Assembly (NCBI GenBank): GCA_017744735.1
Contig: JAGIAR010000002.1
Span: forward strand, 599 to 64,598
DNA from: Novosphingobium sp.
GTDB taxonomy: Bacteria; Pseudomonadota; Alphaproteobacteria; Sphingomonadales; Sphingomonadaceae
DNA: 64,000 nucleotides
Direction of reading: 5' to 3'
The translations under genes and the position numbers were made by a program. The notes under the pieces were generated by a model. It was not told the origin of the DNA and did not search any database. It saw only the letters and a program-made list of their open reading frames with translations. Of this stretch, positions 1-14,048 are shown piece after piece; the first letter of the stretch is position 1; each line of letters starts with the position of its first letter.

Positions 1-487
1 GCTCGATCTTGAACAGCAGCGTGGCGCTGGGCGGGATCGGGCCGGCGCCGCGCAGCCCGTAGCCGAGGCTGGCGGGCACCGCGATCTCGATCGTGTCGCC
101 CACCCCCATCTGCGGCACCGCGAGCTGCCACGCGGGGATCAGCTGGTAGAGCGGGAAGGTCGCCGGATCGCCGCCGTAGGAGCTGTCGAACGTGGTCCCG
201 TCGGTCAGCGTGCCGGCATAATGCAGCGTCACCGTGTCGCGCACGGTCGGGTGCGGCCCGCTGCCGTCGCCCTTGATCCGGCGCCACAGCAGCCCGCCCT
301 GCAGCCAGCTCCACCCGTCCTTCGCCTGGCGGCTGGCGAGCGCGGACTGCTGTTCGTTCAGCCACTTGGCGTCCTGCGGCAGGCCGGTGCCAGCGGGCTG
401 TTCGGCGGCCGCGGCCTGCGCCGGGGCGGCGGGTGCGAGCGCGGCGAGCAGCAGCGCGGAGACCGGGGCGATGCGGCGCGGCGTCAT
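1..487 (-). CDS. FKBP-type peptidyl-prolyl cis-trans isomerase (C-terminus runs off window start)
   Basis: Manual reverse translation from ATG at 487 gives MTPRRIAPVSALLLAALAPAAP (signal peptide). It continues ...TLHYAGTLTDGTTFDSSYGGDPATFPLYQLIPAWQLAVPQMGVGDTIEIAVPASLGYGLRGAGPIPPSATLLFKIE, which are FKBP_C motifs. It is absent from the ORF track because it is truncated. Confidence 0.85.
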   Translation of the reverse strand, partial: MTPRRIAPVSALLLAALAPAAPAQAAAAEQPAGTGLPQDAKWLNEQQSALASRQAKDGWSWLQGGLLWRRIKGDGSGPHPTVRDTVTLHYAGTLTDGTTFDSSYGGDPATFPLYQLIPAWQLAVPQMGVGDTIEIAVPASLGYGLRGAGPIPPSATLLFKIE

Positions 488-1212
488 TCGCCCGATTCTC
501 CCCTGCCGCCGCCCATACCGCCGCCCATGCCGCCGTGCCGGCCGCCGCCCGGGCCGCGCGGTTCGCCGCCCGGAGCGCCAGGCCCGCCGGCCGCGCGCCG
601 GCCCCAGGTTTCCTCGAGCAGGTTCACCTCGTCGTAGGTCAGCCAGCCGTCGTGGTTGAGATCGCCCGCGTCGAAATCCTTGTGCTCGTATTCGGTCAGC
701 TCGGCCAGCGAGCAGCCGGCGTCGTAGTCGGTGTTGCACTCGACGATGGTGGTCGCGCTGACCGGGCGGATCAGATGCTCGAGCACCTCGGCCTCGCGGT
801 CCTTGCCGAGGTGGACCGGCAGCGCCTCGGCCACCTGGGTGCCGCCCTGCTGGTCGCTCAGCGCGAGCGTGCCGAGCGAGAGCTGCCAGGCGGTGAACTC
901 GGCGAGGCTGAGCTGCTGGTTGCGGTCGGTGTCGATCCGGTCGAAGCGGTCGCGGATCGCCACCGCCTTGCGCGCGGCGATGTTGGCGTTGAACTCGTCG
1001 AGCGTCAGCAGCCCGTCATGGTTGGTGTCGGCCTCGGCGAAGACCTTGGCCACCGCCTCGTCGAGCTTCTTGCGCTCGATCGGCTTGGGCGGGCGCGGCG
1101 CGGCGGGCTGGATATGGGTGTCGGCATCGCCGCCGGGGTCGATGTCCTGCGCCTGCGCGGCGCCGCCCAGCGCCAGTGCGGCGACTCCGAAAACCCCCAT
1201 AATCCTGCGCAT
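484..1212 (-). CDS. secreted EF-hand calcium-binding protein with Gly-rich tail
   Basis: Signal peptide MRRIMGVFGVAALALGGAAQA. Three EF-hand loops: DTNHDGLLTLDEF, DTDRNQQLSLAEF, DLNHDGWLTYDEV. Start chosen at ATG 1212; the track ORF extends to 1380 and ATG 1245 is an alternative. The stop overlaps the FKBP ATG (ATGA at 484-487). Confidence 0.75.
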   Translation of the reverse strand: MRRIMGVFGVAALALGGAAQAQDIDPGGDADTHIQPAAPRPPKPIERKKLDEAVAKVFAEADTNHDGLLTLDEFNANIAARKAVAIRDRFDRIDTDRNQQLSLAEFTAWQLSLGTLALSDQQGGTQVAEALPVHLGKDREAEVLEHLIRPVSATTIVECNTDYDAGCSLAELTEYEHKDFDAGDLNHDGWLTYDEVNLLEETWGRRAAGGPGAPGGEPRGPGGGRHGGMGGGMGGGRGESGE

Positions 1213-1331
1213 CGGGCGACCTGTTCGTTGCTTGTCGATCTGCATGGGCTGCTCGCTTTCCTGGGGTGAACGGTGGATGAACTGCTCGAAGGATCCAACG
1301 CGGGCCGCGGGCGAATCCTTCCCCCGCCGGC

Positions 1332-2120
1332 TCACGCGGTGAGGAAATCGACCAGCGCCCGGACCTTCTTCTGGCGCCATTGCGGGCGCGGCGCGACCAG
1401 CCAGTAGGAGCGGTGGCCCTGCTCGGGCCCGACCACCGCGGTCAGCCGCCCGTCGGCCAGGTCGCTCTCGACCAGCAGCAGCGGCAGCATCGCCTTGCCC
1501 AGCCCCGCGCGCACGCTGGCGAGCGCCTGGGCGGCGTTGCCGACCTGCAGCACCGGCTCGGCCCCGTCGGGCATCGGCGCGCCGGGCCAGGCGATCCAGT
1601 CGTCGGGCGCCTCGTCGCGGCGCACCACCACCCGCATCGCCGGGGCGAGCTGGACGCCCTCGAAATCGCCCGGCCCCTCTGCCAGGCGCACCGCGAGATC
1701 GAGATTGGCCTCGGTGAAGTCGACCTCCTCCCCGGCCACCAGCTGGTAGCGGATCTCGGGGTTCTCGGCGCGGAAGGCGGCCAGCCGCGGGGCGAGCCAG
1801 GTCGCCCAGAATTCGTGCGGCGCGGCGATCGCGTAGCTGTAGCTCGACTGGCCGGCCTGCATCGCCTGCACCGCCTCCTCGAACCGCAGGAAGCCCTCGC
1901 GCAGCGGCTCGAGCCCGGCCACGGCCTCGTCTGTCAGTTCCAGCCCCTTGCTGGTGCGGCGGAACAGCACCACCCCGAGCACATCTTCCAGCGCGCGAAT
2001 CTGCTGGCCGACCGCCGCCGGGGTCACCGCCAGCTCGTCGGCGGCGCGGGTAAACGAGAGGTGCCGCGCGGCGGCGTCGAACACGCGGAGCGCGTTGAGG
2101 GGCAGATGCGTGCGCTTCAT
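1332..2120 (-). CDS. LysR family transcriptional regulator (GcvA-like)
   Basis: N-terminal HTH LNALRVFDAAARHLSFTRAADELAVTPAAVGQQIRALE. 262-aa ORF with ATG start. Confidence 0.9.
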   Translation of the reverse strand: MKRTHLPLNALRVFDAAARHLSFTRAADELAVTPAAVGQQIRALEDVLGVVLFRRTSKGLELTDEAVAGLEPLREGFLRFEEAVQAMQAGQSSYSYAIAAPHEFWATWLAPRLAAFRAENPEIRYQLVAGEEVDFTEANLDLAVRLAEGPGDFEGVQLAPAMRVVVRRDEAPDDWIAWPGAPMPDGAEPVLQVGNAAQALASVRAGLGKAMLPLLLVESDLADGRLTAVVGPEQGHRSYWLVAPRPQWRQKKVRALVDFLTA

Positions 2121-2172: not shown

Positions 2173-3534
2173 CTAGAAGCTCGCGGTCAGCGAGCCTGCG
2201 AGATAATGCGTATTGCCGGCGTCCGGCGCATTCGGCGCGTCGTGCAGGAAGCGCCCCTTGGCAAGCCACACCGCATTGGCCTCCGCCCGCAGGAATTTCG
2301 GCACCAGCCAGTAGCGGATCCGCAGGTCGAACTGGTGGCCGGCAAAACTGCCCGAGGCGCCGGTCGGGTCGCGCACGCCGGTGGTCGAGAAGGCGTCGGT
2401 CTTCTCCGCCAGCCACAGCGCGTGCCAGGTCGCGAAGGCGTCGAAGCGCGGCGACGGCGCAATCTCGGCGCGCAGGCCGAAGCTCTCGATATTGGCGCGG
2501 CCGATGTCGTTGTAGATTCCGGCCGGCCCGAAATCCGCCCGCCGCATGCCGTAGAGCGTGTCGAACCGGCCGTAGCGGCCGCCCGCCTTGTCGCCGCCGA
2601 CCCGGTCGAATTCGAGCGAAAGGCGCAGCTTCGCCCTGCCCGGAAACAGCCGCCCGGCATCGGCATGCATCGCCCAGGCGCCGACCGCCTGCACCGGCGC
2701 GTCGGGCGCAGTACCGGTGCGGATGGTGCCGGATTGGTAGAACCCCTCGAGCTCGAAATCGATCGCACCGGGCCGGGGATCGCGGATCACCCGGGCGCTG
2801 AAGGTATCGAGATCCCGGTTGCGGGTCGGATGCCCGGCCCAGTCGCGCTCGCGCAGGCCGAAATAGCCGAGTTCGGCCGTGGCCCCCGCGAGCGTTTCCG
2901 GCCGCGCGAGCAGCGCGCCCCAGGCCTGCAGCGCGAAACTCTCGCGGTCCCATTCGGGACTCTGGCCGGCCAGCCCAGCCCGGTCGTCGGGCAGCCGGAC
3001 CTGCGGCAGCACGTAGAACGCGGTCGCGGCAAGCCCGCCCGCGGTGCGCAGGTTCGCCCGCAGCCCGGTGAAGCCGGTTGTGGTGTTGCGGAAATCGTCG
3101 TCCGCGAACAGGCGCCGCGAGCCGAGATCGAGCTTGAACCGTCCGGCCTGCAGGCCGGCCTTGCTTCCCGCCCCGAACGGCGCGTCGAAATCGGCCGCGA
3201 CATAGGCCTGCACCAGTTCGAGCGTGTTGACCTGGGTGGTGTCGAGCGAATCGCCGGGCCGGTTGAGCCACGCGCGGCTGTCGTAGAGCTCGGCCCCGAA
3301 CCGAACCACGCCGGGATCGTATTCGGCGAACAGCGTCGCGCGGGAATCGAGCTGTCGGTCGCTTGGCGGCAGATCGGCGCGCGGCTGACCGTCGAGCGTC
3401 TCGTAGCGCAGGCGGACGCTGGCCGAGAGCTTGAAATCGGACGGATCGCCGATCGCGGACTGGAGCGACGGGGTTTCGGCCCCGGCGGCACAGGGCAGCG
3501 CAAGGGCAATCAGGGGCAGGAAGCGGATAGTCAT
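2173..3534 (-). CDS. outer-membrane beta-barrel protein, alginate-export (AlgE-like) family
   Basis: Start at ATG 3534 inside track ORF 2173..4014 gives signal peptide MTIRFLPLIALALPCAAGA. Sequence is rich in alternating strands and ends ...LAGSLTASF (terminal Phe, typical of OM barrels). Family call is from memory of AlgE-like porins. Confidence 0.7.
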   Translation of the reverse strand: MTIRFLPLIALALPCAAGAETPSLQSAIGDPSDFKLSASVRLRYETLDGQPRADLPPSDRQLDSRATLFAEYDPGVVRFGAELYDSRAWLNRPGDSLDTTQVNTLELVQAYVAADFDAPFGAGSKAGLQAGRFKLDLGSRRLFADDDFRNTTTGFTGLRANLRTAGGLAATAFYVLPQVRLPDDRAGLAGQSPEWDRESFALQAWGALLARPETLAGATAELGYFGLRERDWAGHPTRNRDLDTFSARVIRDPRPGAIDFELEGFYQSGTIRTGTAPDAPVQAVGAWAMHADAGRLFPGRAKLRLSLEFDRVGGDKAGGRYGRFDTLYGMRRADFGPAGIYNDIGRANIESFGLRAEIAPSPRFDAFATWHALWLAEKTDAFSTTGVRDPTGASGSFAGHQFDLRIRYWLVPKFLRAEANAVWLAKGRFLHDAPNAPDAGNTHYLAGSLTASF

Positions 3535-3827
3535 CAAGCGCAACTCCACGCCGGAAGAACCGGCGAAAGGAAGCAAACGCTTGAGCGCAGGCTGCGCTTG
3601 ACCGGGAGGCTGCACGGCCCCGGTGCGTGGAAAACTATACAAGCGGCTCGCGCGGCGCAACCGCCTGCCAAGCGCGACCAATGAATCGGATTTCATGGGG
3701 CCTCCGCGACCATTCGATGCCGCGGCTCCATCCGAATGGTCGCCGCTATGCATGGCGCAATACGGCGTGCCCTGCCCCGTGCTATCGCATGGCGGCGTTT
3801 GCGGGAAAACAGCTTTCGGTTCGCCGG

Positions 3828-4079
3828 CTATTCGAAATCCGCAGGATCGACCTTCGGCGATTGTGCGCCGCGCAGCAGGCTGCGCCCGCCGAAGAACAGT
3901 CCCAGCCCGATCGCGAAGGGGACGCCGCCGAAGACCAGCGCCAGCGGGGCGATCGAGGCGAACTCCTCGCCGCCGCCGCCGACCAGACCGCCGATCAGCA
4001 CCACCCCGGTGCACAGCCCGCTCAGCCCGGCGATCAAGATGCCGGTGGCCAGCATCATTCCCCCCAAGAAGCCTTTCAT
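3828..4079 (-). CDS. Gly-rich two-TM miniprotein, translationally coupled to the radical SAM gene
   Basis: MKGFLGGMMLATGILIAGLSGLCTGVVLIGGLVGGGG...APLALVFGGVPFAIGLGLFFGG. Its ATG 4079 overlaps the radical SAM stop (ATGA at 4076-4079). It is the tail of track ORF 3828..4691. Confidence 0.55.
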   Translation of the reverse strand: MKGFLGGMMLATGILIAGLSGLCTGVVLIGGLVGGGGEEFASIAPLALVFGGVPFAIGLGLFFGGRSLLRGAQSPKVDPADFE

Positions 4080-5539
4080 CGCGTCCCCGCTTTCGCCAGC
4101 GCGCGGTGGCGGGCGAGCACTGCGGCGCCCTCCGCCCCCGCGCGGTAGAAGGTGTTGTAGGTGTCGAAGGGGACGATCTGCCCCTCCTCCGTCACGAAAT
4201 GCACGCAGCTGCGCTTCACCGTGCCGAGATCGAAATTGTAGCGGTCGAGGAACTGCAGGATCACCACCCGGAAGCTGTCGGCATAGGTCAGCTCCTCGGG
4301 CACCAGCGCCTGCGGGAGGCAGCACAGCAGCCCGGCGAGCTTCTCGCTGGTATCGGCCTGCGCGGTCGCGAGCGAGAACAGGTCGAGCACCGCCTCGCGC
4401 AGCGCCGGATGCGCTTCGTAGCTGATCGTGTTGGGCCCCGAGAGGATCATCTCGCGCGGCAGCAGCGCGGTGATCGGGGTCACGCTGCGCCCGGAGCGCA
4501 GCCCGTAGCCGATGCAGATCTGGTCGGGATTGCACGGCAGCGGGATCAGGTCTTCCAGCCCGAACACCCCGGCTTCGGCGACCGCGCGGCGGATCTGGCT
4601 CAGCACCATGCGGTTGGCCTTGGGATCGAAGCCCTCGTTGCGCCCCGCGTCCTGCACCGGCTGGAAGGTGACCCCGCGCACGCAGCGCCACTCGAGCGCA
4701 TGGCGCACGATCGCGGCGATTTCGCCGTCATTGACCCCGCGCTTCACCACCGCCACCAGCGTGGTCGAGATATTGTGCCGTTCGAGCGCCTCGAGCGCTT
4801 CGCGCCGGATGCGGCTGAGGCGCGCGCCGCGCAGATCCATCAACGCCTCGTCGTCGAGCGCGTCGAACTGGAGATAGACCTCCAGCCGCGGCGTGTAACT
4901 TGCCAGCCGCGCGACGAACTCCGGATCCTGCGCGATCCGCACCCCGTTGGTGTTGATCATCACATGGCGGATCGGGCGCGCCTTGGCCGCATCGAGGATT
5001 GCGAAGAATTCCGGGTGGATGGTCGGCTCGCCGCCCGAGAACTGGACCAGGTCGGGCTCGCCCTCGCTGCGCACCAGCGCATCCAGCATCGCCTCGATCT
5101 CCGCCAGCGGGCGGTGCGATCCGTTCATGTCGGCGGCGTCGGCGAAGCACACCGGGCAGGCGAGATTGCACGCCCGGTTGACCTCGATCAGCGCAAGGCA
5201 GCTGTGCTGCTCGTGATCGGGGCACAGGCCGCAGTCGAACGGACAGCCGGCCTCGGTCCGGGTCTGCGCTTCCAGCGGCCGGTCGCCCGGCTTGATCCAC
5301 AGTTTCTGCTGGCGCCAGTACTCCACATCGTCGCTGATCAGCGTCTTCTGCACCCCGTGGCTGAGGCAGCGCTTGAGGTAGAAGACGCAATCGTCCTCGA
5401 TGACGATCTTCGTCGCGACCGGTTCGAGGCAGGTCTCGCACAGGCTGGTGGTCTGCCCGTGGAAGACATAGGGCGCAGCCTTGCGTCCGGGCGCTTCAGC
5501 CCGGTCCGCGGTCAGCGCGTCGCCACCAGGTGATTCCAT
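4076..5539 (-). CDS. radical SAM protein with extra N-terminal Cys clusters (COG1964 / Tes-GDGT-MAS-like layout)
   Basis: CNLACPVC (CX3CX2C), preceded by CPFDCGLCPDHEQHSC and by N-terminal CETC...C...C. GGEPT motif present (FSGGEPTIHPEF). 487 aa, ATG start. Confidence 0.85.
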   Translation of the reverse strand: MESPGGDALTADRAEAPGRKAAPYVFHGQTTSLCETCLEPVATKIVIEDDCVFYLKRCLSHGVQKTLISDDVEYWRQQKLWIKPGDRPLEAQTRTEAGCPFDCGLCPDHEQHSCLALIEVNRACNLACPVCFADAADMNGSHRPLAEIEAMLDALVRSEGEPDLVQFSGGEPTIHPEFFAILDAAKARPIRHVMINTNGVRIAQDPEFVARLASYTPRLEVYLQFDALDDEALMDLRGARLSRIRREALEALERHNISTTLVAVVKRGVNDGEIAAIVRHALEWRCVRGVTFQPVQDAGRNEGFDPKANRMVLSQIRRAVAEAGVFGLEDLIPLPCNPDQICIGYGLRSGRSVTPITALLPREMILSGPNTISYEAHPALREAVLDLFSLATAQADTSEKLAGLLCCLPQALVPEELTYADSFRVVILQFLDRYNFDLGTVKRSCVHFVTEEGQIVPFDTYNTFYRAGAEGAAVLARHRALAKAGTR

Positions 5540-6212
5540 AGACGATCAGCCCCAGCATCAGGAAATGGAACAGGTTGAACGGCCCCACCAGCGGCGGATA
5601 GGGCTTGAGGAGCTCCCACACGAACCGCTGCGCAGCATAGACGATTACCAGCGCGTGGAAAGCGTGGTGCAGCGCCCAGCCCTGCCCCGCGACCCGCGCC
5701 CGCGCACAGACCAGCGCGAACAGGCCCATCGCCAGCGCCTCGTACAGCGCCACCGGATGGCGCCCGACCCCGTCGCCGAGATCGACCGCCCAGGGCAGCG
5801 ATGTCGGCGTGCCGTAGGTATAGTCGGCCAGGCCGGAGAACAGGCAGCCCATCCGCCCGACCGCGATCCCGACGCCGAGCGGCAGCGCGAAGCCGCCCCC
5901 GGTCGAGACGCGGATGCCATGGCGCCATTTCCATAGCTCGACCGCCACGATCCCGCCCGCGAGCGCGCCGGCGATCGAATGCGATGGTGCCGCCGCGATG
6001 CTGCGCAGCGAATTGGCCGAACCGAACAGCCAGGCCCCGGCCAGCGCCCCGAGCGCGAGCGATACGAAATAGGACGGGGTCGAGATCGCCGCCAGCCGCC
6101 CGGCCTCTGCCGGCCAGCGGCGGTGCTGCCAGCGCGCGGCGAGCGCGGCCGAGCTCCACGCGGCAAGATCGCCGGCATAATGCGCCCAGGGTGCGGTGGG
6201 GAGATGGATCAT
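5496..6212 (-). CDS. prolipoprotein diacylglyceryl transferase (Lgt) family paralogue
   Basis: Start ATG 6212 (MIHLPTAPW) inside track ORF 5496..6443. Multi-TM protein with Lgt signature GRHPVALYEALAMG. Its 3' end overlaps the radical SAM start by 44 nt. Confidence 0.75.
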   Translation of the reverse strand: MIHLPTAPWAHYAGDLAAWSSAALAARWQHRRWPAEAGRLAAISTPSYFVSLALGALAGAWLFGSANSLRSIAAAPSHSIAGALAGGIVAVELWKWRHGIRVSTGGGFALPLGVGIAVGRMGCLFSGLADYTYGTPTSLPWAVDLGDGVGRHPVALYEALAMGLFALVCARARVAGQGWALHHAFHALVIVYAAQRFVWELLKPYPPLVGPFNLFHFLMLGLIVYGITWWRRADRGPG

Positions 6213-6240
6213 CCGCGCCGGTCGGCCGCCGGGCGCGCGA

Positions 6241-6651
6241 TCAATCGGCGGTCGCGGGCGCCGCCAGCGGGAAGAACGGGATCGCCACCTCGAAGCTTTC
6301 GCCTTCGCGCCCGCCGTCGAGCCGGCGGAAGGTGTAGAAGCCTTCCATGCTGCCGTGCGGCGTGGTGAGCGGGCAGCCGGACACGTAGTCGTGGCTCTGC
6401 CCGGGGGCGAGCACCGGGGTTTCGCCGACCACGCCTTCGCCATTGACGATGTTGATCGCGCCGCGTCCGTCGGTGATCCGCCAGTGGCGGCTGAGCAGCT
6501 GGACGGTTTCGCCCGAATGGTTCTCGAGCCGGATGTGATAGACCCAGAACCACTTGCCGGCCTCGACCCGCGACTGGTCGGGCATGAAGTTCACCGCCAC
6601 CCTGACGGTGATGCCCTGCGTCATCGCGGCATGCTGGAACAGTTCTTTCAC
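6241..6651 (-). CDS. apaG: ApaG (DUF525) protein
   Basis: ...GITVRVAVNFMPDQSRVEAGKWFWVYHIRLENHSGETVQLLSRHWRITDGRG...GCPLTTPHGSMEGFYTF. Start is GTG 6651 (VKELFQHAAMTQ); ATG 6624 is an alternative. Confidence 0.85.
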   Translation of the reverse strand: MKELFQHAAMTQGITVRVAVNFMPDQSRVEAGKWFWVYHIRLENHSGETVQLLSRHWRITDGRGAINIVNGEGVVGETPVLAPGQSHDYVSGCPLTTPHGSMEGFYTFRRLDGGREGESFEVAIPFFPLAAPATAD

Positions 6652-6733
6652 GAGTCGGGAAGCTAACGGGATTCCCCGCGCCTTCAAGTGCGGATGCGGC
6701 GAATTGCACCGCAAGGGTGGAAACGCCGGGCGC

Positions 6734-8095
6734 TTATTGCGCCGGAACGGCGGCTTCCTCTTCCACCAGCAGGCCGTCGCCGCGCAGCGCCCATTGCAGC
6801 CCGCGGGGTGCATAATCGAGCACCACCTCGGCGTTCAGCCTGCGGCGCGGAAGCTCCGCGATCAGCGTCGTGCCGAAGCCGCGGCTTTCGGGCTGCCGCA
6901 CGCTGGGCCCGCCGCTTTCGCGCCACCACAGATGCAGCCCGGCGGCCGGCCGGTCGATCTCCCAGCCGATCGTGACCGTGCCCGCCGGAACGGAAAGCGC
7001 GCCGTATTTGAGCGAATTTGTCGCCAGTTCGTGCACCGCCATGCCGATCGCCTCGGCGGCCGGGGCGGACAGCGCCGCCGAAGGCCCGCAGATCTCGAAC
7101 TGCCCCAGATCCTCGCCGAGGAAGCCGAGCTGGCGGCGCACCAGTTCGTCCAGGTCGACCTCGCGCCAATCGCCCCGCACCAGCAGGTCCTGGTTGGTCG
7201 CGAGGCCGTTCACCCGTACCTCGAAGCGTTCGACGAAGGCATCGTCCCCCTCGCCCCGCGCCGTCCGGCGGGCGAGCGCCTGCACCGTCGCGATCAGGTT
7301 CTTGGTCCGGTGGTTGACCTCGTGCAGCATCAGGCGGACCTTGTCGGTCTGCTCGCGCTGGTCGTGGATGTCGGTATGGGTGCCCACCCAGTGGGTGATC
7401 CCGCCGTCGGCCCCGCGCACCGGATGGGCCCGCGCCAGAAACCAGCGATACTGGCCGTCGCGGCCCTTCAGCGGGAAGATGTCCTCCCACTCGGCGCCGG
7501 TTTCCATCGACTCGTAATAGCGCGCCAGCACCTGGCTCAGGTGGTCCGGATGGTGAATGCTTTCGCGGCCGCCGTCCTCGAGCTGCGCGGCCGTGAGGCC
7601 GGTGTATTCCTCCAGCCGGCGGTTGACCCAGCCGACCTTGCCCGCCGGATCGGCAACCCAGGCGATCTGCGAAATGTTGTCGGCCAGCGCGCGGAACAGC
7701 TTCTCGCTTTCCTCGATCCGCTTCTGGGATGCGAGGTATCCGGTGGCGTCGCGCGCCATCTTGCACGCGCCGACGATATTGCCGTGGCTGTCGAGCACCG
7801 GGGAAACCGTGACGAAGACATGGATCAGGCTGCCGTCCTTGCGCCGCCGTTCGGTGACGAACTGGGGCACCCGTTCGCCGCCGGTGATCTTGGCGAGGAT
7901 ATCGTCCTCTTCGCGCTGGCGCTCGAACGGGATCAGCTTGCGGACCGATTCCCCGATCATTTCCTCGGCCGACTAGCCGAACAGCCGCTGCGCCGCCGGG
8001 TTCCAGCTGACCACGGTGGAGTTGAGATCCTTCGCGACGATCGCATCGTCCGAGGATTCGACCAGCGCGGCGTAGAAGTGATCCTGTGCTTTCAT
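6734..8095 (-). pseudogene. PAS-PAS HWE/HisKA_2 sensor histidine kinase interrupted by an in-frame TAG (7973-7975); intact downstream ORF is 6734..7960
   Basis: From ATG 8095: MKAQDHFYAALVESSDDAIVAKDLNSTVVSWNPAAQRLFG-TAG-SAEEMIGESVRKLIP... in one frame. Downstream motifs are HEVNHRTKNL (H box) and HELATNSLKYGA (N box). Confidence 0.6.
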
Positions 8096-8271
8096 CCGGT
8101 TCTGCAGGTTGGTTCGGCGGCAGGCGTCGCCGGGAAGGCGCGCAGCCTACGCCAACTTGCCGATCCGTGCGAATCCAAATCCGTTCGCCACTGCGTGAAA
8201 TGCCCGATTGCCACCGCGCCCGCGTGCGATAATCTCGTGCGCGGGTCGAACAGGCGAATGCGGGGGCATCG

Positions 8272-10302
8272 ATGGGGCGTGGCGGAACCTTTGTGCGGCG
8301 GTGCGCGTGGGGCGCGGCCGCGGGGCTGCTGGCGCTGCGCCCGGCGGCAGGCTTCGCGGGGGACGCTCCTTCCGACGCTGCCTCCCCTTCCCCGCCGGTT
8401 GCGGCACCGCAGGCTGCTCCCGCAGACGGCGGCGCCCGCAAGCAGATCCCGACCTCGCTGTTCGCCGAGCGCAGCCAGTTCGGCAGCCCGCTGATCTCGC
8501 CCGACGGCAGCAAGATCGCGCTGCGGCTGACGGTCAAGGGCGAGCAGAACGTCGCCGCGATGGATCTTGCGACCAAGAAGATCCTCTACATGGCCGAGAT
8601 GGACGCGACCCACGAGATCGACTGGTTCGCCTGGGCCGGAAACGACCGCCTGCTGGTGTCGGTCGGGACGCAGGACAAGATCTACGACGTCGATGTGCGG
8701 GTCACCCGGCTGTTCGCGCTCGACGTGGCGGATAAGGCGCTCCACTTCCTCGGGCCCAAGCGCCTCGGGATCGAGGGCGACGACGTGCTCTATACCGATC
8801 CCGCGGGCAAATACGTGCTGCTGTCCTATTCGCGCGACATCTTCACCGAGCCCGAGGTCTGGCGCTTCCCGCTCGATACCGGCGGGCCCGACAAGCCGGA
8901 GCGGATCCTGGGCAGCCAGGCCAACGTCTGGCAATGGATCGCCGACGACGACGGCACGGTGCGGATCGGGCTCGGCTGGTCGGGCACGCGGCTGGTCGTG
9001 CGCTATCGCCGCAGCGCGGACGACGGTTTCAAGATCATCGGCCGGCTCAGCCGCGACGCCGACAGCAAGGACGAATTGTGGGACGTGCTGCGGATCATCG
9101 GCGGCAGCGACGAGGGCTACATGCTCGACGACGGCGATCACGGCCATGTCGCGCTGCGCAAGTTCAACTATGCGACGCGGCAGACCGGCGAAGTGGTCTA
9201 CGAGAACCCCGACTGGGACGTGACCGATTTCGACCTCGACGACGACGGCAAGCCGGTGGCGGTCTATTACACCGACGACCGCGACCATGTGGTGTGGCTC
9301 GATCCGAAGGTGGAGAAGCTCCAGAAGGCGCTCCAGAAGGCGCTGGACAGCCCCGACGTGTGGATCGGATCGCGCTCGAAGGACGATACGCAGATGATCG
9401 TGTGGTCCGGCGGGCCGACCGATCCCGGCGCGGCGTTCCTCTACGACGCCAAGACCCACAAGCTCGACATCTTCGGCGAAGCCCGCCCCGGCCTCGCCCC
9501 CGGGCTGCTAGCCCCGGTCAAGCCGGTGTCCTACACCGCGCGCGACGGGACCGCGATCCACGCCTACCTGACCCTTCCGCCGGGCCGCCCGGCCACCGGC
9601 CTGCCGCTGATCCTGCTGCCGCACGGCGGACCTTACGGGGTCCGCGACAAGCTCGAATACAACGACGAGGTCCAGCTGCTCGCCAGCCGCGGCTATGCGG
9701 TGCTGCAGCCGAACTACCGCGGCTCGGGCGGCTATGGCGAGACATTCGAGAAGCTCGGCGACGGGCAGATCGGGCGGACGATGCAGGACGATCTCGACGA
9801 TGCGATGGACTGGGCGGTGGCGCAGGGGATCGCCGATCCGAAGCGGGTCTGCGTCGACGGCTCGAGCTATGGCGGCTACGCCGCGCTGTGGGCGGTGATG
9901 CGCAATCCCGAGCGCTATCGCTGCGCCGCGAGCTTCGCCGGGGTGACCGACTGGGACAGCCAGCTCCGCTACGACGCCGACTTCTTCACCGCCAAGGGCC
10001 GCAAGAGCTGGCGCACGCGGATCCGCGGGGAAGACCGCAAGTTCGATCTCGACACCGTCTCGCCCGCGCGCAAGGCCGCCACGCTGACCCGGCCGGTGCT
10101 GATCGCGCACGGCAAGATCGACGGCAACGTGCCCTTCAGCCAGTTCGAGAAGCTCAAGGCCGCGCTCGACAAGGCGAAGTTCGCCAAGGCGGACTATCTG
10201 GTGTTCGACAAGGAAGGCCACGGCTTCGACACCGCCGAGGACGAACAGCGCTGGTACGATGCCCTGATCGCCTTCCTCGCCAAGAACGACCCGCCCGACT
10301 GA
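8272..10302 (+). CDS. S9 family serine peptidase (prolyl oligopeptidase / dipeptidyl aminopeptidase-like)
   Basis: Signal-like N-terminus, beta-propeller-length N-domain, and a C-terminal alpha/beta hydrolase domain with nucleophile elbow GSSYGGYAALWA. Confidence 0.9.
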   Translation: MGRGGTFVRRCAWGAAAGLLALRPAAGFAGDAPSDAASPSPPVAAPQAAPADGGARKQIPTSLFAERSQFGSPLISPDGSKIALRLTVKGEQNVAAMDLATKKILYMAEMDATHEIDWFAWAGNDRLLVSVGTQDKIYDVDVRVTRLFALDVADKALHFLGPKRLGIEGDDVLYTDPAGKYVLLSYSRDIFTEPEVWRFPLDTGGPDKPERILGSQANVWQWIADDDGTVRIGLGWSGTRLVVRYRRSADDGFKIIGRLSRDADSKDELWDVLRIIGGSDEGYMLDDGDHGHVALRKFNYATRQTGEVVYENPDWDVTDFDLDDDGKPVAVYYTDDRDHVVWLDPKVEKLQKALQKALDSPDVWIGSRSKDDTQMIVWSGGPTDPGAAFLYDAKTHKLDIFGEARPGLAPGLLAPVKPVSYTARDGTAIHAYLTLPPGRPATGLPLILLPHGGPYGVRDKLEYNDEVQLLASRGYAVLQPNYRGSGGYGETFEKLGDGQIGRTMQDDLDDAMDWAVAQGIADPKRVCVDGSSYGGYAALWAVMRNPERYRCAASFAGVTDWDSQLRYDADFFTAKGRKSWRTRIRGEDRKFDLDTVSPARKAATLTRPVLIAHGKIDGNVPFSQFEKLKAALDKAKFAKADYLVFDKEGHGFDTAEDEQRWYDALIAFLAKNDPPD

Positions 10303-11488: not shown

Positions 11489-12697
11489 TCAGAGCCCCGC
11501 CTTCGCAAACGCCCGGTCGAGATCCTCGATCAGGTCCTGCGGGTCTTCCAGCCCGACGTTGAGCCGGATCATACCTTCCCCGATCCCCATCTCGGCACGG
11601 CCTTCGGGGCCCATGTTGTTGTGGGTGGTCGAAGCCGGGTGGCACGCGAGGCTCTTGGAATCGCCGATGTTGTTCGAGATGTCGATCAGTTCGAGCGCGT
11701 TGAGCACCGCGAAGGCCTTCTCGCGCCCGCCGTCGACCACGAAGCTGAAGATCGGGCCGAAGGCGTCCATCTGCTTCGCGGCCAGGTTGTGCTGGGCGAA
11801 GCTGGGCAGGCCGGGGTGGAGGACCTGCGCCACCCGCCCCTCGACGAAAGCGCCGACCTTGAGCGCGTTCTCGCTCTGGCGATGGGCGCGCAGGTCGAGG
11901 GTCTCGAGCCCCTTCAGCACCACCCAGGCGTTGAACGGCGAACAGATCGGCCCGGTGTTGCGCTGGAACGGCGAAAGCACGCCGTTGATCCAGGCGTCGC
12001 TGCCGCAGATCGCCCCGGCGAGCACCCTGCCCTGCCCGTCCATCAGCTTGGTGGCCGAATAGGCGACGATGTCGATCCCGAATTCCAGCGGGCGCTGCAG
12101 CACCGAGGTCGCGAAGGCATTGTCGACGATGGTGGTGATCCCGTGCGCCTGCGCGAGCTTGGCGACGTGCTCCATATCGACGATGTCCATCGTCGGGTTG
12201 GCCGGGGTCTCGAAGAAGAACACCTTGGTGTTCGGCTGGATCGCGCGTTCCCAGGCATCGTTGTCGCGCCCGTCGATCGCCGTGTGGGTGATCCCGAAGC
12301 GGTTGAGCACGTTGTTCATGATCCAGCGGCACGAGCCGAAGGCCGCGCGGCCCATCACCACATGGTCGCCGGCCGAGAGCATGCACAGCAGCGCGCTGGT
12401 CATCGCGGCCATGCCGCTCGCCTGCACCTTGCACGCCTCGGCCCCCTCCATCGCCGCGATCCGCTCTTCGAGCATCGCCACGGTCGGGTTCTGGAACCGC
12501 GAATACTGCATCCCGGTGGCTTCGCCGGCGAAGCGCGCGGCGACGGTCTCGGCGCTGTCGTAGGTGTAGCCCGAGGTGAGGAACAGCGCTTCGCTCGTCT
12601 CGCCCTGCTCGCTGCGCCAGGTGCCCGCGCGCACCGCCTGCGTCGCGGGGCGCCATTTGGCGGTGATGGTGCGGTCGGTTCCGGTGGAGTTTTTCAT
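11489..12697 (-). CDS. metZ: O-succinylhomoserine sulfhydrylase
   Basis: Start ATG 12697 (MKNSTGTDRTITAKWRPATQAVRAG). PLP-enzyme motifs are VAYSATKLMDGQGRVLAG (Lys in SATK) and ...ACHPASTTH. Cys/Met metabolism PLP family with a MetZ-like N-terminus. Confidence 0.9.
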   Translation of the reverse strand: MKNSTGTDRTITAKWRPATQAVRAGTWRSEQGETSEALFLTSGYTYDSAETVAARFAGEATGMQYSRFQNPTVAMLEERIAAMEGAEACKVQASGMAAMTSALLCMLSAGDHVVMGRAAFGSCRWIMNNVLNRFGITHTAIDGRDNDAWERAIQPNTKVFFFETPANPTMDIVDMEHVAKLAQAHGITTIVDNAFATSVLQRPLEFGIDIVAYSATKLMDGQGRVLAGAICGSDAWINGVLSPFQRNTGPICSPFNAWVVLKGLETLDLRAHRQSENALKVGAFVEGRVAQVLHPGLPSFAQHNLAAKQMDAFGPIFSFVVDGGREKAFAVLNALELIDISNNIGDSKSLACHPASTTHNNMGPEGRAEMGIGEGMIRLNVGLEDPQDLIEDLDRAFAKAGL

Positions 12698-12773
12698 GGG
12701 TCGGGGCCTTAGGACCGGGCGAAGCGAGGGGCAAGCCTTGCACCGCCGAACCGCTCTGCTATCTCCCGCCGCG

Positions 12774-14048
12774 ATGACCCAGTCGCTTTCGACCGTTCGC
12801 GATCCCCGTGGCTGGAGCGCGCTGATCGTCGCGATCTTCGCCGTGCTCGTCTGCATTCGTCTCGGCACCCCGAGCCGGTTCTATTTCGACGAGGTCCACT
12901 ACATTCCCGCCGCGCGGGTGCTGCTGCAGTTCGACCATATCACCAACCGCGAGCATCCGCTGGTGGGCAAGGAAATCCTCGCCCTGGCACTCACCTGGTT
13001 CGGCGACAAGCCGGTTGCGTGGCGGGTGTTCCCGGTGATCGCCGGGATCCTGACGCTGATCGCCTTCATCCGGCTGATGTGGTTCACCACCCTCTCGCGT
13101 TTCGCGACGATCGCCGGCGGCGTGCTGCTGGCGACCGGCTTCGTGCTGTTCGTGCAGGCGCGCATCGCGATGCTGGACATCTTCATGGCCTGCTTCACGA
13201 TGATCGGGCTGTGGATGGTGGCGGCGGCGGTGCGCCTGCCCGGGCAGGCGCGCTGGCGGCTGGCGGCCGCGGGGATCGCGATGGGCCTCGCGCTCGGCAG
13301 CAAGTGGAACGCGGCGCCGCTGGCGGTGCTGCCCGGCCTGACCTTCCTGGTGCTGCGGATCAGGGAGGCCGGTCCGCGCTTCCTCACCCGGCGCGATTGC
13401 GGCCCGATCCCCGGCATCAGCCTGATCGAAGCCGGCGTGTGGCTCGGCGTGCTGCCGGTCGTGGTCTATCTCGCGACCTTCTGGCCGGTGTTCTTCTACG
13501 CCAAGAACCCGCTGACGATCGGCGGCTACTGGGAATACCACAAGAAGATGTACGAGCTGCAGGAGCAGGTCGTGAAGCCCCACCCCTATATGAGCCGGTG
13601 GTACGAATGGGTGATCGACTGGCGCCCGATCTGGTATCTCTACGAACGGGTCGACGGCGCGCAGCGCGGCGTGCTGCTGATCGGCAACCCCTTCACGATG
13701 ATCGTCGGGCTGGCCGCGGTCGCGTGGTGCGGCTGGGCCGGCTTCATGGAGCGGAACCGCCCTGCGCTGGTGTTCTTCGGGCTCTATGCGGTGACCATCG
13801 GGATGTGGATCGTCGCGCCCAAGCCGGTGCAGTTCTACTACCACTATTTCCTGCCGAGCTGCTTCCTGCTGGGCGCGCTGGCGGTCACGCTGGACCAGCT
13901 ATGGAAGGAAGGCTGGCACAAGACCGCGCTGGGATCGGTAATCGCCAGCGTGGTGCTGTTCGCGATCTTCTATCCGATCATCAGCGCGGCCCATCTCGAG
14001 GGGCCCTATTCCTTCCAGCACTGGATGTGGCTGAACAGCTGGAAATAG
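12774..14048 (+). CDS. GT39 (PMT-type) phospholipid-carrier-dependent glycosyltransferase
   Basis: ATG 12774. Multi-pass membrane protein with loop-1 FYFDEVHYIPAA (DE motif) and a C-terminal HPYMSRWYEWVIDWRPIWY (PMT_4TMC-like). Confidence 0.8.
   Translation: MTQSLSTVRDPRGWSALIVAIFAVLVCIRLGTPSRFYFDEVHYIPAARVLLQFDHITNREHPLVGKEILALALTWFGDKPVAWRVFPVIAGILTLIAFIRLMWFTTLSRFATIAGGVLLATGFVLFVQARIAMLDIFMACFTMIGLWMVAAAVRLPGQARWRLAAAGIAMGLALGSKWNAAPLAVLPGLTFLVLRIREAGPRFLTRRDCGPIPGISLIEAGVWLGVLPVVVYLATFWPVFFYAKNPLTIGGYWEYHKKMYELQEQVVKPHPYMSRWYEWVIDWRPIWYLYERVDGAQRGVLLIGNPFTMIVGLAAVAWCGWAGFMERNRPALVFFGLYAVTIGMWIVAPKPVQFYYHYFLPSCFLLGALAVTLDQLWKEGWHKTALGSVIASVVLFAIFYPIISAAHLEGPYSFQHWMWLNSWK

Follow-up and report, generated by a model that had tools for sequence, protein, structure and literature searches.

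In the 64,000-nucleotide stretch of Novosphingobium sp. DNA analysed here (referred to as the window; GCA_017744735.1, contig JAGIAR010000002.1, positions 599 to 64,598), three coupled genes lie on the minus strand: an Lgt-like gene (5496-6212), a radical SAM gene (4076-5539) and a miniprotein gene (3828-4079). The Lgt-like ORF runs from an ATG at 6212 to a stop ending at 5496, encodes 238 amino acids and contains GRHPVALYEA. The radical SAM ORF starts with an ATG at 5539, ends with a stop at 4076 and encodes 487 amino acids, and it overlaps the Lgt-like ORF by 44 nt (5496-5539). No other in-frame start codon lies between 5539 and the conserved RKAAPY segment, which indicated that the overlap is real. 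The ATG of the miniprotein gene (4079-4077) overlaps the radical SAM TGA (4078-4076) in the sequence ATGA (4076-4079), an arrangement that was found in many other loci. The ApaG stop lies 28 nt upstream, and the ATG of an AlgE-like porin (3534) lies 293 nt downstream. Every detail of the observation made in the original prediction was therefore confirmed. A scan of positions 3300-7000 detected no promoter-like site and no terminator for the operon, although such a scan is uninformative in this GC-rich genome.

Components of the module

The 238-aa protein is a member of the Lgt family with seven predicted TM helices. It matched Pfam LGT (PF01790) with 53.3 bits against a cut-off of 24.9, whereas the NCBIfam equivalogs of housekeeping Lgt (NF000775 and NF000778) gave only 22.7 and 20.8 bits against cut-offs of 334-428. 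A phmmer search of PDB with the single sequence returned only spurious ZP2 hits, but a family profile matched E. coli Lgt 5AZB at E=6e-15. Moreover, the AF2 model (pLDDT 86.7) had 5AZB as its only significant PDB match (Foldseek prob 1.00, TM 0.58/0.50; the only hit with E below 0.001), which supported a predicted Lgt fold. No second Lgt-like ORF was present in the 64-kb window, the only part of the genome examined, so that the protein is called a paralogue here only in a putative sense.

Compared with E. coli Lgt (PDB 5AZB/5AZC), the protein shares the predicted topology but only 19% identity, is shorter (238 against 291 amino acids) and has a head domain about 20 residues shorter. The segment G119-R120-M-G122-C123 (5844-5858, minus strand) is equivalent to the Lgt signature G142-R143-L-G145-N146, in which the Arg is kept and the Asn is replaced by an invariant Cys. 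The segment R151-H-P-V-A-L-Y-E158 (5739-5762, minus strand) is equivalent to E. coli R195-HPSQLY-E202 at the start of TM5, with R151, H152, P153 and Y157 invariant across phyla and E158 nearly invariant. In addition, Y192, R196, E200 and K203 (5604-5639, minus strand) correspond to E. coli Y235, R239, E243 and R246, the second catalytic arginine network. R120, Y192 and R196 are invariant across phyla, and E200 is Glu or Asp throughout. G150 is also retained, while E151 is lacking. However, three residues essential in E. coli Lgt (PMC4728403, PMC13251419) differ: Y26 reads D15 (D/E in the family), H103 reads A81 (A/V/I) and N146 reads C123. Loss of H103 and N146C do occur in distant Lgt proteins, and the latter is seen in L. 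interrogans Lgt and in M. smegmatis MSMEG_5408 (PMC13251419).

The 487-aa protein belongs to the radical SAM superfamily, with the cluster motif C124-x3-C128-x2-C131 in CNLACPVC (5147-5170, minus strand) and a PF04055 score of 83.5 bits against a cut-off of 29.5. It also belongs to the GDGT-MAS/Tes superfamily (IPR034474, MJ0619-like), since Pfam Zn_ribbon_HMPTM (PF23545) scored 52.1 bits against a cut-off of 27. GDGT-MAS, the archaeal tetraether lipid synthase (MJ0619; PDB 7TOL/7TOM), was the only close solved relative, with a sequence match to 7TOL at E=1e-57 and a Foldseek match at E=1e-24 over 502 columns. The AlphaFold model was poor (pLDDT 57.5), having been built from a shallow alignment of 78-92% identical sequences, and was used only for the Foldseek ranking and not for geometry. 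The domain order is that of GDGT-MAS, namely a rubredoxin-like site, an N-terminal auxiliary [4Fe-4S] site, a radical SAM core and a C-terminal domain. The rubredoxin-like site C34-x2-C37-x20-C58-x2-H61 (5357-5440, minus strand), which includes CETC, has a spacing identical to that of GDGT-MAS C9x2C12x20C33x2H36 (PMC9433317) and is conserved in nearly all of the 154 sequences compared; its third and fourth ligands are C58 and H61, and the non-conserved C51 is not one of them. The auxiliary motif C99-x3-C103-x2-C106-x2-H109-x2-H112-x-C114 (5198-5245, minus strand), which reads CPFDCGLCPDHEQHSC, matches GDGT-MAS C73/C77/C80 plus His (PMC9433317) and is invariant in the clade.

Nevertheless, the protein is not a Tes orthologue. 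Its identity to GDGT-MAS is only 26-27%, and the Tes equivalog model (NF045702) gave 252.2 bits against a curated cut-off of 450, with only residues 29-322 matching well. The C-terminal cluster region (4163-4534, minus strand; C336, C406-C407, S444-C445 and D459) is remodelled. GDGT-MAS C455, C456 and C470, which surround the [4Fe-4S] cluster that carries the C-S intermediate, read S444-C445-D459 here and S/T-C-D/E in all complete members of the Lgt-linked clade, but C-C-C in most other subfamilies. Met439 corresponds to L428, and the CC pair at 406-407 is specific to the clade and invariant in it. These data revealed that the protein belongs to a clade of its own. The best NCBIfam model was that of the radical SAM (seleno)protein TrsS (NF045646), which matched over the full length with 296.2 bits but lay below its cut-off of 490. 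A selenoprotein reading was rejected because the ORF has no in-frame TGA. Methyltransferase-linked relatives at about 37% identity (P0254 and P0263) keep the C-C-C motif and sit next to a class I methyltransferase and 'GCC' membrane proteins, with no Lgt gene.

The miniprotein has 83 amino acids, 24% Gly and two hydrophobic segments, predicted as two TM helices (N-in, C-in). It had no Pfam or NCBIfam match, and nothing scored above any cut-off when ten miniproteins were searched. Its Cys23 (4011-4013, minus strand) lies in the motif S-G-L-C-T, 21 residues after Lys2. Over 66 miniproteins, the conserved Cys lies a median of 17 residues after the last K/R, with Gly at -2 in 41 of 66 and a small residue at +1 in 47 of 66. 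This arrangement, a cytoplasmic K/R segment followed by about 17 hydrophobic residues, then small residues and a Cys at the outer-leaflet end of an in-to-out helix, resembles that of a lipoprotein signal peptide. However, the motif does not fit the canonical lipobox: position -1 is Leu or Ile in 35 of 66, the chain stays hydrophobic after the Cys, and a second TM helix follows or precedes it. L-S-G-L-C in the window fails the [LVI][ASTVI][GAS]C rule, which only a minority of the 66 miniproteins fit.

Conservation of the gene association

In a scan of one genome per species, the Lgt-like gene was on the same strand in 76 of the 78 loci that have upstream sequence, from at least 10 phyla. These loci came from Alpha-, Beta- and Gammaproteobacteria, Bacteroidota, Bacillota, Cyanobacteria, Planctomycetota, Acidobacteriota, Gemmatimonadota and Myxococcota. 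The gene usually overlaps the radical SAM gene. In 56 loci it was adjacent or overlapping, and in 54 loci other than the present one the Lgt stop lies no more than 57 nt before, or lies past, the first Zn-ribbon Cys codon. Moreover, natural LGT-Zn ribbon-radical SAM fusions include the proteins P0244 and P0359 and at least 57 protein clusters sharing 48-88% identity. The clade is at least 44% identical across at least 10 phyla and about 80% identical within Sphingomonadales.

Analogous small ORFs with the Cys in an in-to-out helix were found in about 70 of 85 loci, in variable positions and often in tandem copies. Their density near the operon was 0.69 per kb against 0.115 per kb in the flanks, an enrichment of about 6-fold. 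Automatic TM-segment heuristics under-counted Gly-rich or short-loop miniproteins, and the tally of about 70 loci therefore rests on reading the listed ORFs. No miniprotein was found in about 9 loci that have full flanks, including two Bacillota loci. Flanking genes differed between loci, and all-against-all clustering of the neighbours found only the two core families. Thus, links to ApaG, MetZ, the porin or the LysR gene were rejected, and the proposal in the original prediction that ApaG and the porin may belong to the system was not supported.

The remaining interpretation of the original prediction was partly supported. Its family assignments, made from motifs alone, were right, and its statement that bacterial homologues have no assigned role agrees with the literature. 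The two outcomes named beforehand as refuting it were not observed: no characterised non-lipid family matched above threshold, since MoaA, PqqE, anSME-type and HemN-type models scored far below their cut-offs, and co-occurrence with the Lgt-like gene was nearly universal. The view that the trio acts on a membrane glycerolipid remains unproven, whereas the description of the miniprotein as Gly-rich can be refined, as its defining feature is a single conserved Cys in a lipobox-like position.

A possible lipid-modifying complex

The most likely reading, held with no more than even confidence, is that the three genes encode one inner-membrane complex that acts on a phosphatidylglycerol-type lipid together with a dedicated small acceptor protein. 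The analysis itself demonstrates the family identities and the Lgt fold of the model, the retention of the residues that bind and activate the diacylglyceryl-phosphate part of phosphatidylglycerol in E. coli Lgt (R143, E202, Y235, R239 and E243, with R246 becoming Lys), the retention of all four metal sites and the overall build of GDGT-MAS with changed C-terminal cluster ligands, the translational coupling or Lgt-first fusion across phyla, and the position of the miniprotein Cys. The topology, complex formation, substrate, product, catalysis and any coupling of lipid tails are all inferred, without experimental support. By the positive-inside rule, the Lgt-like protein would have the E. coli topology, with its active site at the periplasmic leaflet and its C-terminus in the cytoplasm, and the miniprotein Cys would therefore sit at the same membrane depth as that active site. 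In this view, the Lgt-like protein transfers a diacylglyceryl (or related) group from phosphatidylglycerol to that Cys, or holds lipid and Cys together. The cytoplasmic radical SAM enzyme, docked on the C-terminus of the Lgt-like protein, would use 5'-deoxyadenosyl radicals to functionalise an unactivated carbon of a lipid tail, by C-C coupling or by a C-S bond through the remodelled cluster. A shared substrate class is consistent with this, as Lgt uses phosphatidylglycerol, and GDGT-MAS binds phosphatidic acid and phosphatidylglycerol-type lipids and uses archaetidylglycerol. However, the three altered residues mean that the Lgt-like protein may only bind lipid, and the model leaves unexplained how one lipid could reach both a periplasmic site and a cytoplasmic enzyme. 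Furthermore, organisms carrying the module, with ester-linked fatty-acid lipids in the present host, are not known to make membrane-spanning lipids.

Bacterial homologues of the archaeal tetraether synthase have been noted since 2022 and are used to infer producers of brGDGT palaeoclimate biomarkers, yet none has a demonstrated function. No paper was found that describes the present module or links Tes homologues to Lgt, and none of the Tes papers examined mentions such partners. The analysis shows a large, well-delimited bacterial clade that is bound to an Lgt-like protein and a Cys-bearing miniprotein and has altered ligands at the cluster that carries the catalytic intermediate in GDGT-MAS. 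Counting these genes as tetraether or brGDGT synthases in metagenomes is thus probably unsafe. The question of what bacterial Tes homologues do also becomes directly testable, as there are three defined components, obvious point mutants and culturable hosts such as Sphingomonas, Bradyrhizobium, Chryseobacterium and Paenibacillus. If the Lgt-like protein really lipidates its private partner, this would be the first dedicated Lgt-substrate pair, and it would link lipoprotein-type chemistry to radical lipid chemistry. An unlikely possibility that should not be excluded is that the module installs a new kind of protein-linked lipid, in which the Lgt-like protein S-lipidates the miniprotein Cys with a phosphatidylglycerol-derived diacylglyceryl group and the Tes-like enzyme then uses radical chemistry to cross-link a tail of that lipid to a lipid of the opposite leaflet, or to sulfur. 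This would give a membrane-spanning, protein-anchored lipid in ordinary aerobic bacteria of many phyla.

Alternative readings

Among the alternatives, a bulk membrane-spanning-lipid synthase survives best, although it is considered unlikely. In this reading, the radical SAM enzyme couples the tails of ordinary phospholipids as Tes does, giving diabolic-acid-type or brGDGT-precursor lipids, while the Lgt-like protein serves only as a membrane dock or lipid feeder and the miniprotein is a structural subunit. This is the published hypothesis for bacterial Tes homologues, and it is supported by full-length homology to GDGT-MAS and by the binding of bacterial phospholipids to that enzyme. However, host genera such as Sphingomonas, Bradyrhizobium, Chryseobacterium and Bacillus are not known to make such lipids. 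In one survey, Tes homologues were absent from the non-acidobacterial producers of diabolic or iso-diabolic acid and present in only 3 of 14 acidobacterial producers, and bacterial membrane-spanning lipid synthesis was traced to Mss of Thermotoga and Thermoanaerobacter, a radical SAM enzyme proposed to couple lipid tails, described as only remotely related to Tes and found in anaerobes. Moreover, this reading does not explain the conserved Cys of the miniprotein, the retained Lgt catalytic arginines or the altered cluster ligands.

Sulfur-centred chemistry is still less likely. The radical SAM enzyme might make a thioether between a lipid carbon and a Cys (miniprotein Cys23 or Lgt-like Cys123), or insert cluster-derived sulfur into a lipid, with the Lgt-like protein positioning the lipid. 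GDGT-MAS forms a bond between a substrate carbon and a cluster sulfur as an intermediate, the clade changes the ligands of exactly that cluster, and the two conserved Cys residues are predicted to lie at the same membrane depth. In fused PVC loci, a membrane protein with a rhodanese-like segment is translationally coupled upstream, but the rhodanese match was below threshold and was seen in only one of the two proteins tested. Furthermore, both Cys residues are predicted to lie in the periplasmic leaflet, away from the cytoplasmic enzyme, and there is no precedent for such a lipidation.

A non-lipid role, either pterin methylation or RiPP-type maturation of the miniprotein as a peptide substrate, is very unlikely, for although JGI names many homologues '7,8-dihydro-6-hydroxymethylpterin dimethyltransferase' and a small protein next to a radical SAM gene recalls a RiPP precursor, the pterin activity could not be reproduced, the GDGT-MAS pocket is hydrophobic, these bacteria are not known to make methanopterin, the miniprotein is a predicted integral membrane hairpin with low sequence conservation apart from one Cys, no peptidase, transporter or RiPP recognition element gene is conserved nearby, and SPASM and RiPP maturase models scored far below their cut-offs. 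A role in sphingolipid, hopanoid or carotenoid pathways was also rejected, because the host range (for example Bradyrhizobium, Massilia, Bacillus and Cyanobacteria together with Bacteroidota) matches none of these traits.

Coordinates and identities of the three genes

The minus strand of positions 3400-6700 was read and its ORFs were listed, and the observation made in the original prediction, that three minus-strand genes are physically coupled, held at every coordinate. The Lgt-like ORF of 238 aa runs from the ATG at 6212 to a stop ending at 5496. The radical SAM ORF of 487 aa starts at the ATG at 5539, 44 nt inside the Lgt-like ORF, and ends with a TGA at 4078-4076; no alternative in-frame start lies before the conserved N-terminal segment. 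Moreover, this TGA overlaps the ATG (4079-4077) of an 83-aa miniprotein ORF ending at 3828. The motifs CETC, CPFDCGLCPDHEQHSC, CNLACPVC and GRHPVALYEA were all found as predicted. The stop of ApaG lies 28 nt upstream of the trio, and the ATG of the porin (3534) lies 293 nt downstream. The window comes from a Novosphingobium MAG, and the identical proteins P0001 and P0121 are on record.

Sequence analyses with Pfam found two domains in the radical SAM protein, Zn_ribbon_HMPTM (the MJ0619 family) and Radical_SAM. The best NCBIfam models were TrsS (296 bits against a cut-off of 490) and Tes (252 bits against a cut-off of 450), both below their curated cut-offs, whereas MoaA, PqqE, NirJ, SPASM maturases and similar models scored 25-50 bits against cut-offs in the hundreds. 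The only close solved structure was GDGT-MAS, 7TOL/7TOM (phmmer E=1e-57). A Foldseek search with a predicted model, which was of low confidence, gave E=1e-24 over about 500 columns for this structure against 9e-9 for the next hit. The Lgt-like protein passed the Pfam LGT model with 53 bits but scored only 21-23 bits on the housekeeping Lgt equivalogs, and its AlphaFold model (pLDDT 86.7) matched only E. coli Lgt 5AZB significantly. The miniprotein matched no family in Pfam or NCBIfam.

Conservation of the gene pair and its neighbors

A scan of one genome per GTDB species with a profile of diverse homologues returned 80 loci, all at least 46% identical over the best matching segment and at least 44% identical over a full-length alignment. 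The loci come from Alpha-, Beta- and Gammaproteobacteria, Bacteroidota, Bacillota, Cyanobacteria, Planctomycetota, Acidobacteriota, Gemmatimonadota and Myxococcota. When these were taken together with five other loci, an HMM of the Lgt-like family found a same-strand copy in 76 loci. Of the nine loci without a hit, seven have contigs that end 1-225 nt upstream of the radical SAM gene, and one of these, L029, still shows the Lgt 3' end; one of the nine, L074, is from a lineage that uses an alternative genetic code, and only L072 clearly lacks the Lgt-like gene. In 56 loci the Lgt stop lies within 176 nt of, or past, the first Zn-ribbon Cys codon, so the genes abut or overlap as they do in the window. 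In 15 loci the Lgt-like gene lies further upstream, in 3 it is downstream, and in 1 it is fused.

The fusions are not artefacts. At least 57 clusters of LGT-Zn ribbon-Radical_SAM proteins of 656-825 aa share 48-88% identity, and the few that carry a source name come from Tepidisphaerales and Verrucomicrobiota MAGs. In two loci with the fused gene, L089 (2703-4001) and L091 (2580-4004), a membrane protein of 432-474 aa ends exactly where the fusion gene starts. It has an N-terminal rhodanese-like segment (Pfam Rhodanese E=0.0019, which is below the cut-off and was seen in one of the two proteins) and a Cys-rich TM region (GEGCCF, LCCVC), and it is a possible sulfur-transfer partner specific to PVC bacteria.

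All-against-all clustering of every ORF in the 85 neighborhoods found no other shared family, and the flanks differ even between Sphingomonas pituitosa and a second MAG. The original prediction had considered that ApaG and the AlgE-like porin might be linked to the trio, but these genes are neighbors by accident. In the window, ApaG (6241-6630, minus strand; NCBIfam 141.8 bits) lies upstream of the trio and a MetZ-like Cys/Met PLP enzyme (11489-12868, minus strand) lies further upstream, whereas in S. pituitosa ApaG sits next to the PLP enzyme about 6-7 kb upstream of the trio on the opposite strand, with five other genes in between, and the adjacency in the window is therefore incidental. Downstream of the trio lie an Alginate_exp (AlgE-like) porin (2173-3534, minus strand), a LysR-type regulator identified by translation (1332-2120, minus strand) and a secreted protein with EF-hand-like DxDxDG repeats and a Gly-rich tail (484-1380, minus strand), none of which is conserved next to the trio elsewhere.

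Sequence features of the three proteins

A profile of 15 Lgt-like members from different phyla aligned to 5AZB at E=6e-15, and the residue roles were taken from Mao et al. 2016 and from a 2026 mBio study. With E. coli numbering, G142-R143-x-G145 and G150, the RHPxxLYE motif (E202), and Y235, R239 and E243 are kept in this family, and R246 is replaced by Lys. In contrast, H103 reads Ala, Val or Ile, N146 is an invariant Cys (C123 in the window protein), Y26 reads Asp or Glu, and E151 is absent. The periplasmic head is about 20 residues shorter and has its own motif, DxTYGxPTxLPWGxDFGDGxxRHP. The mBio study reported N146C in distant Lgts (L. interrogans, and MSMEG_5408 of M. smegmatis) and described H103 as poorly conserved; therefore, these changes weaken the case for transferase activity but do not exclude it. 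The distribution of K/R in the loops predicts the E. coli topology, with the N-terminus out, the C-terminus in and the active site at the periplasmic leaflet. This topology is an inference from the positive-inside rule, and it is consistent with fusion of the C-terminus to the cytoplasmic radical SAM domain. In addition, an invariant Glu (E92, 5937-5939) and an invariant Lys (K95, 5928-5930) of the Lgt-like gene sit near the cytoplasmic end of TM3 in the motif G-V-E-x-x-K, where E. coli Lgt has Ile and Ala at the aligned positions, and these residues could be a contact site for the radical SAM partner.

The radical SAM protein was compared with the published ligands of GDGT-MAS. The rubredoxin site C9x2C12x20C33x2H36 corresponds to C34/C37/C58/H61, the [4Fe-4S]N ligands C73/C77/C80 plus His correspond to C99/C103/C106 plus H109/H112, and the radical SAM motif is C124/C128/C131. 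These sites are conserved in nearly all of the 154 sequences compared. The C-terminal region, however, differs, as Met439 of GDGT-MAS corresponds to L428 and the conserved triad C455/C456/C470 reads S444-C445-D459. Every complete Lgt-linked sequence shows S/T-C-D/E at the triad, together with an invariant C336 and a C406-C407 pair, whereas most more distant subfamilies show C-C-C. In GDGT-MAS this cluster carries the carbon-sulfur intermediate, and it is inferred that the changed ligand set argues for altered chemistry rather than simple orthology.

Small hydrophobic ORFs accompany the pair in about 70 of 85 loci, although no miniprotein was found in about nine loci with full flanks. Their position varies: they lie downstream of the radical SAM gene in Alphaproteobacteria, Flavobacteriia and the fused PVC loci, between the two genes in Chryseobacterium, Sphingobacterium and some Acidobacteriota, and upstream of the Lgt-like gene in Betaproteobacteria. 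Such ORFs are about six times denser next to the operon than in the flanks. They often occur as two or three tandem copies (loci L003, L005, L011, L016, L031, L036, L038, L044, L057, L067 and L068), and in L031 one copy has Phe where the other has the conserved Cys. Sequence similarity is low, but one feature was constant in the 66 sequences compiled, namely a Cys that lies a median of 17 residues after the last K/R, with Gly at -2 in 41 sequences, Leu, Ile or Ala at -1, and a small residue at +1 in 47, followed by a median of 9 further uncharged residues. The Cys-bearing helix is the first helix in Alpha- and Betaproteobacteria and Gemmatimonadota and the last helix in Bacteroidota, Cyanobacteria, Bacillota, Acidobacteriota and PVC bacteria. 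In both arrangements it follows a positively charged segment, so it should run from inside to outside. This is the geometry of a lipoprotein signal peptide with its lipobox Cys, but the canonical lipobox rule is not met. Furthermore, in L035, a locus from a Planctomycetales MAG, three tandem genes of about 150-170 aa (8202-9743) lie between the radical SAM gene and a downstream Lgt-like gene; each has an N-terminal CxxC...CxxC zinc-ribbon, TM helices and a C-terminal TM Cys, and they look like an elaborated form of the miniprotein.

Inferred function and boundaries of the clade

The present analysis shows a conserved, often fused pair of an Lgt-fold membrane protein with intact phosphatidylglycerol-binding arginines and a GDGT-MAS-type enzyme, which in most genomes is joined by a small protein that offers a Cys in lipobox-like position. 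Prior work has established that Lgt transfers diacylglyceryl from phosphatidylglycerol to such a Cys, and that GDGT-MAS binds phosphatidylglycerol-type lipids and activates terminal lipid carbons. What remains inference is that the Lgt-like protein lipidates, or at least aligns, the miniprotein Cys with a phosphatidylglycerol-derived lipid, and that the radical SAM enzyme modifies a tail of that or a neighboring lipid. The main point that this model leaves unexplained is spatial, as the Lgt site is predicted to be periplasmic and the radical SAM enzyme cytoplasmic. That the genes form one functional membrane module acting on a glycerolipid or Cys-protein substrate is considered likely, the specific order of events is only tentative, and the explanation as a whole is held with no more than even confidence. 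The possibilities of a bulk membrane-spanning-lipid synthase, of thioether or sulfur chemistry, and of a non-lipid role were considered as alternatives. The interpretation in the original prediction, in which the trio acts on a membrane glycerolipid with ApaG and the porin as possible associates, was supported only in part.

Papers on Tes, GDGT-MAS, Mss, Gms, brGDGT producers and Lgt, including 2026 reviews, were found to mention bacterial Tes homologues only as uncharacterised sequences or as hypothetical brGDGT synthases, and none mentions an Lgt partner or a miniprotein. Database names are generic or inherited ("radical SAM protein", "prolipoprotein diacylglyceryl transferase family protein", "7,8-dihydro-6-hydroxymethylpterin dimethyltransferase"). 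The parts belong to known families, but the three-component arrangement and the clade signature appear to be undescribed.

Relatives of the radical SAM protein at about 37% identity (P0254 and P0263) have no Lgt gene. At their loci (L085:2671-3438, L087:6428-7210 and L088:1703-2485) they are followed by a class I SAM methyltransferase and flanked by small "GCC"-motif or DsbD_TM membrane proteins, and they represent a separate, also uncharacterised subfamily near NCBIfam TrsS. Therefore, the Lgt link is mainly a property of the clade that is at least 44% identical to the window protein, and the one exception seen is a fusion (P0359) whose radical SAM part is of the C-C-C type. Finally, the MAG contigs of loci L021 (recorded as Candidatus Kuenenia) and L002 (recorded as Dokdonella) carry radical SAM genes that are 62% and 80% identical to the Novosphingobium protein, respectively, which is much closer than their named taxa would suggest, so they are probably mis-binned alphaproteobacterial contigs.
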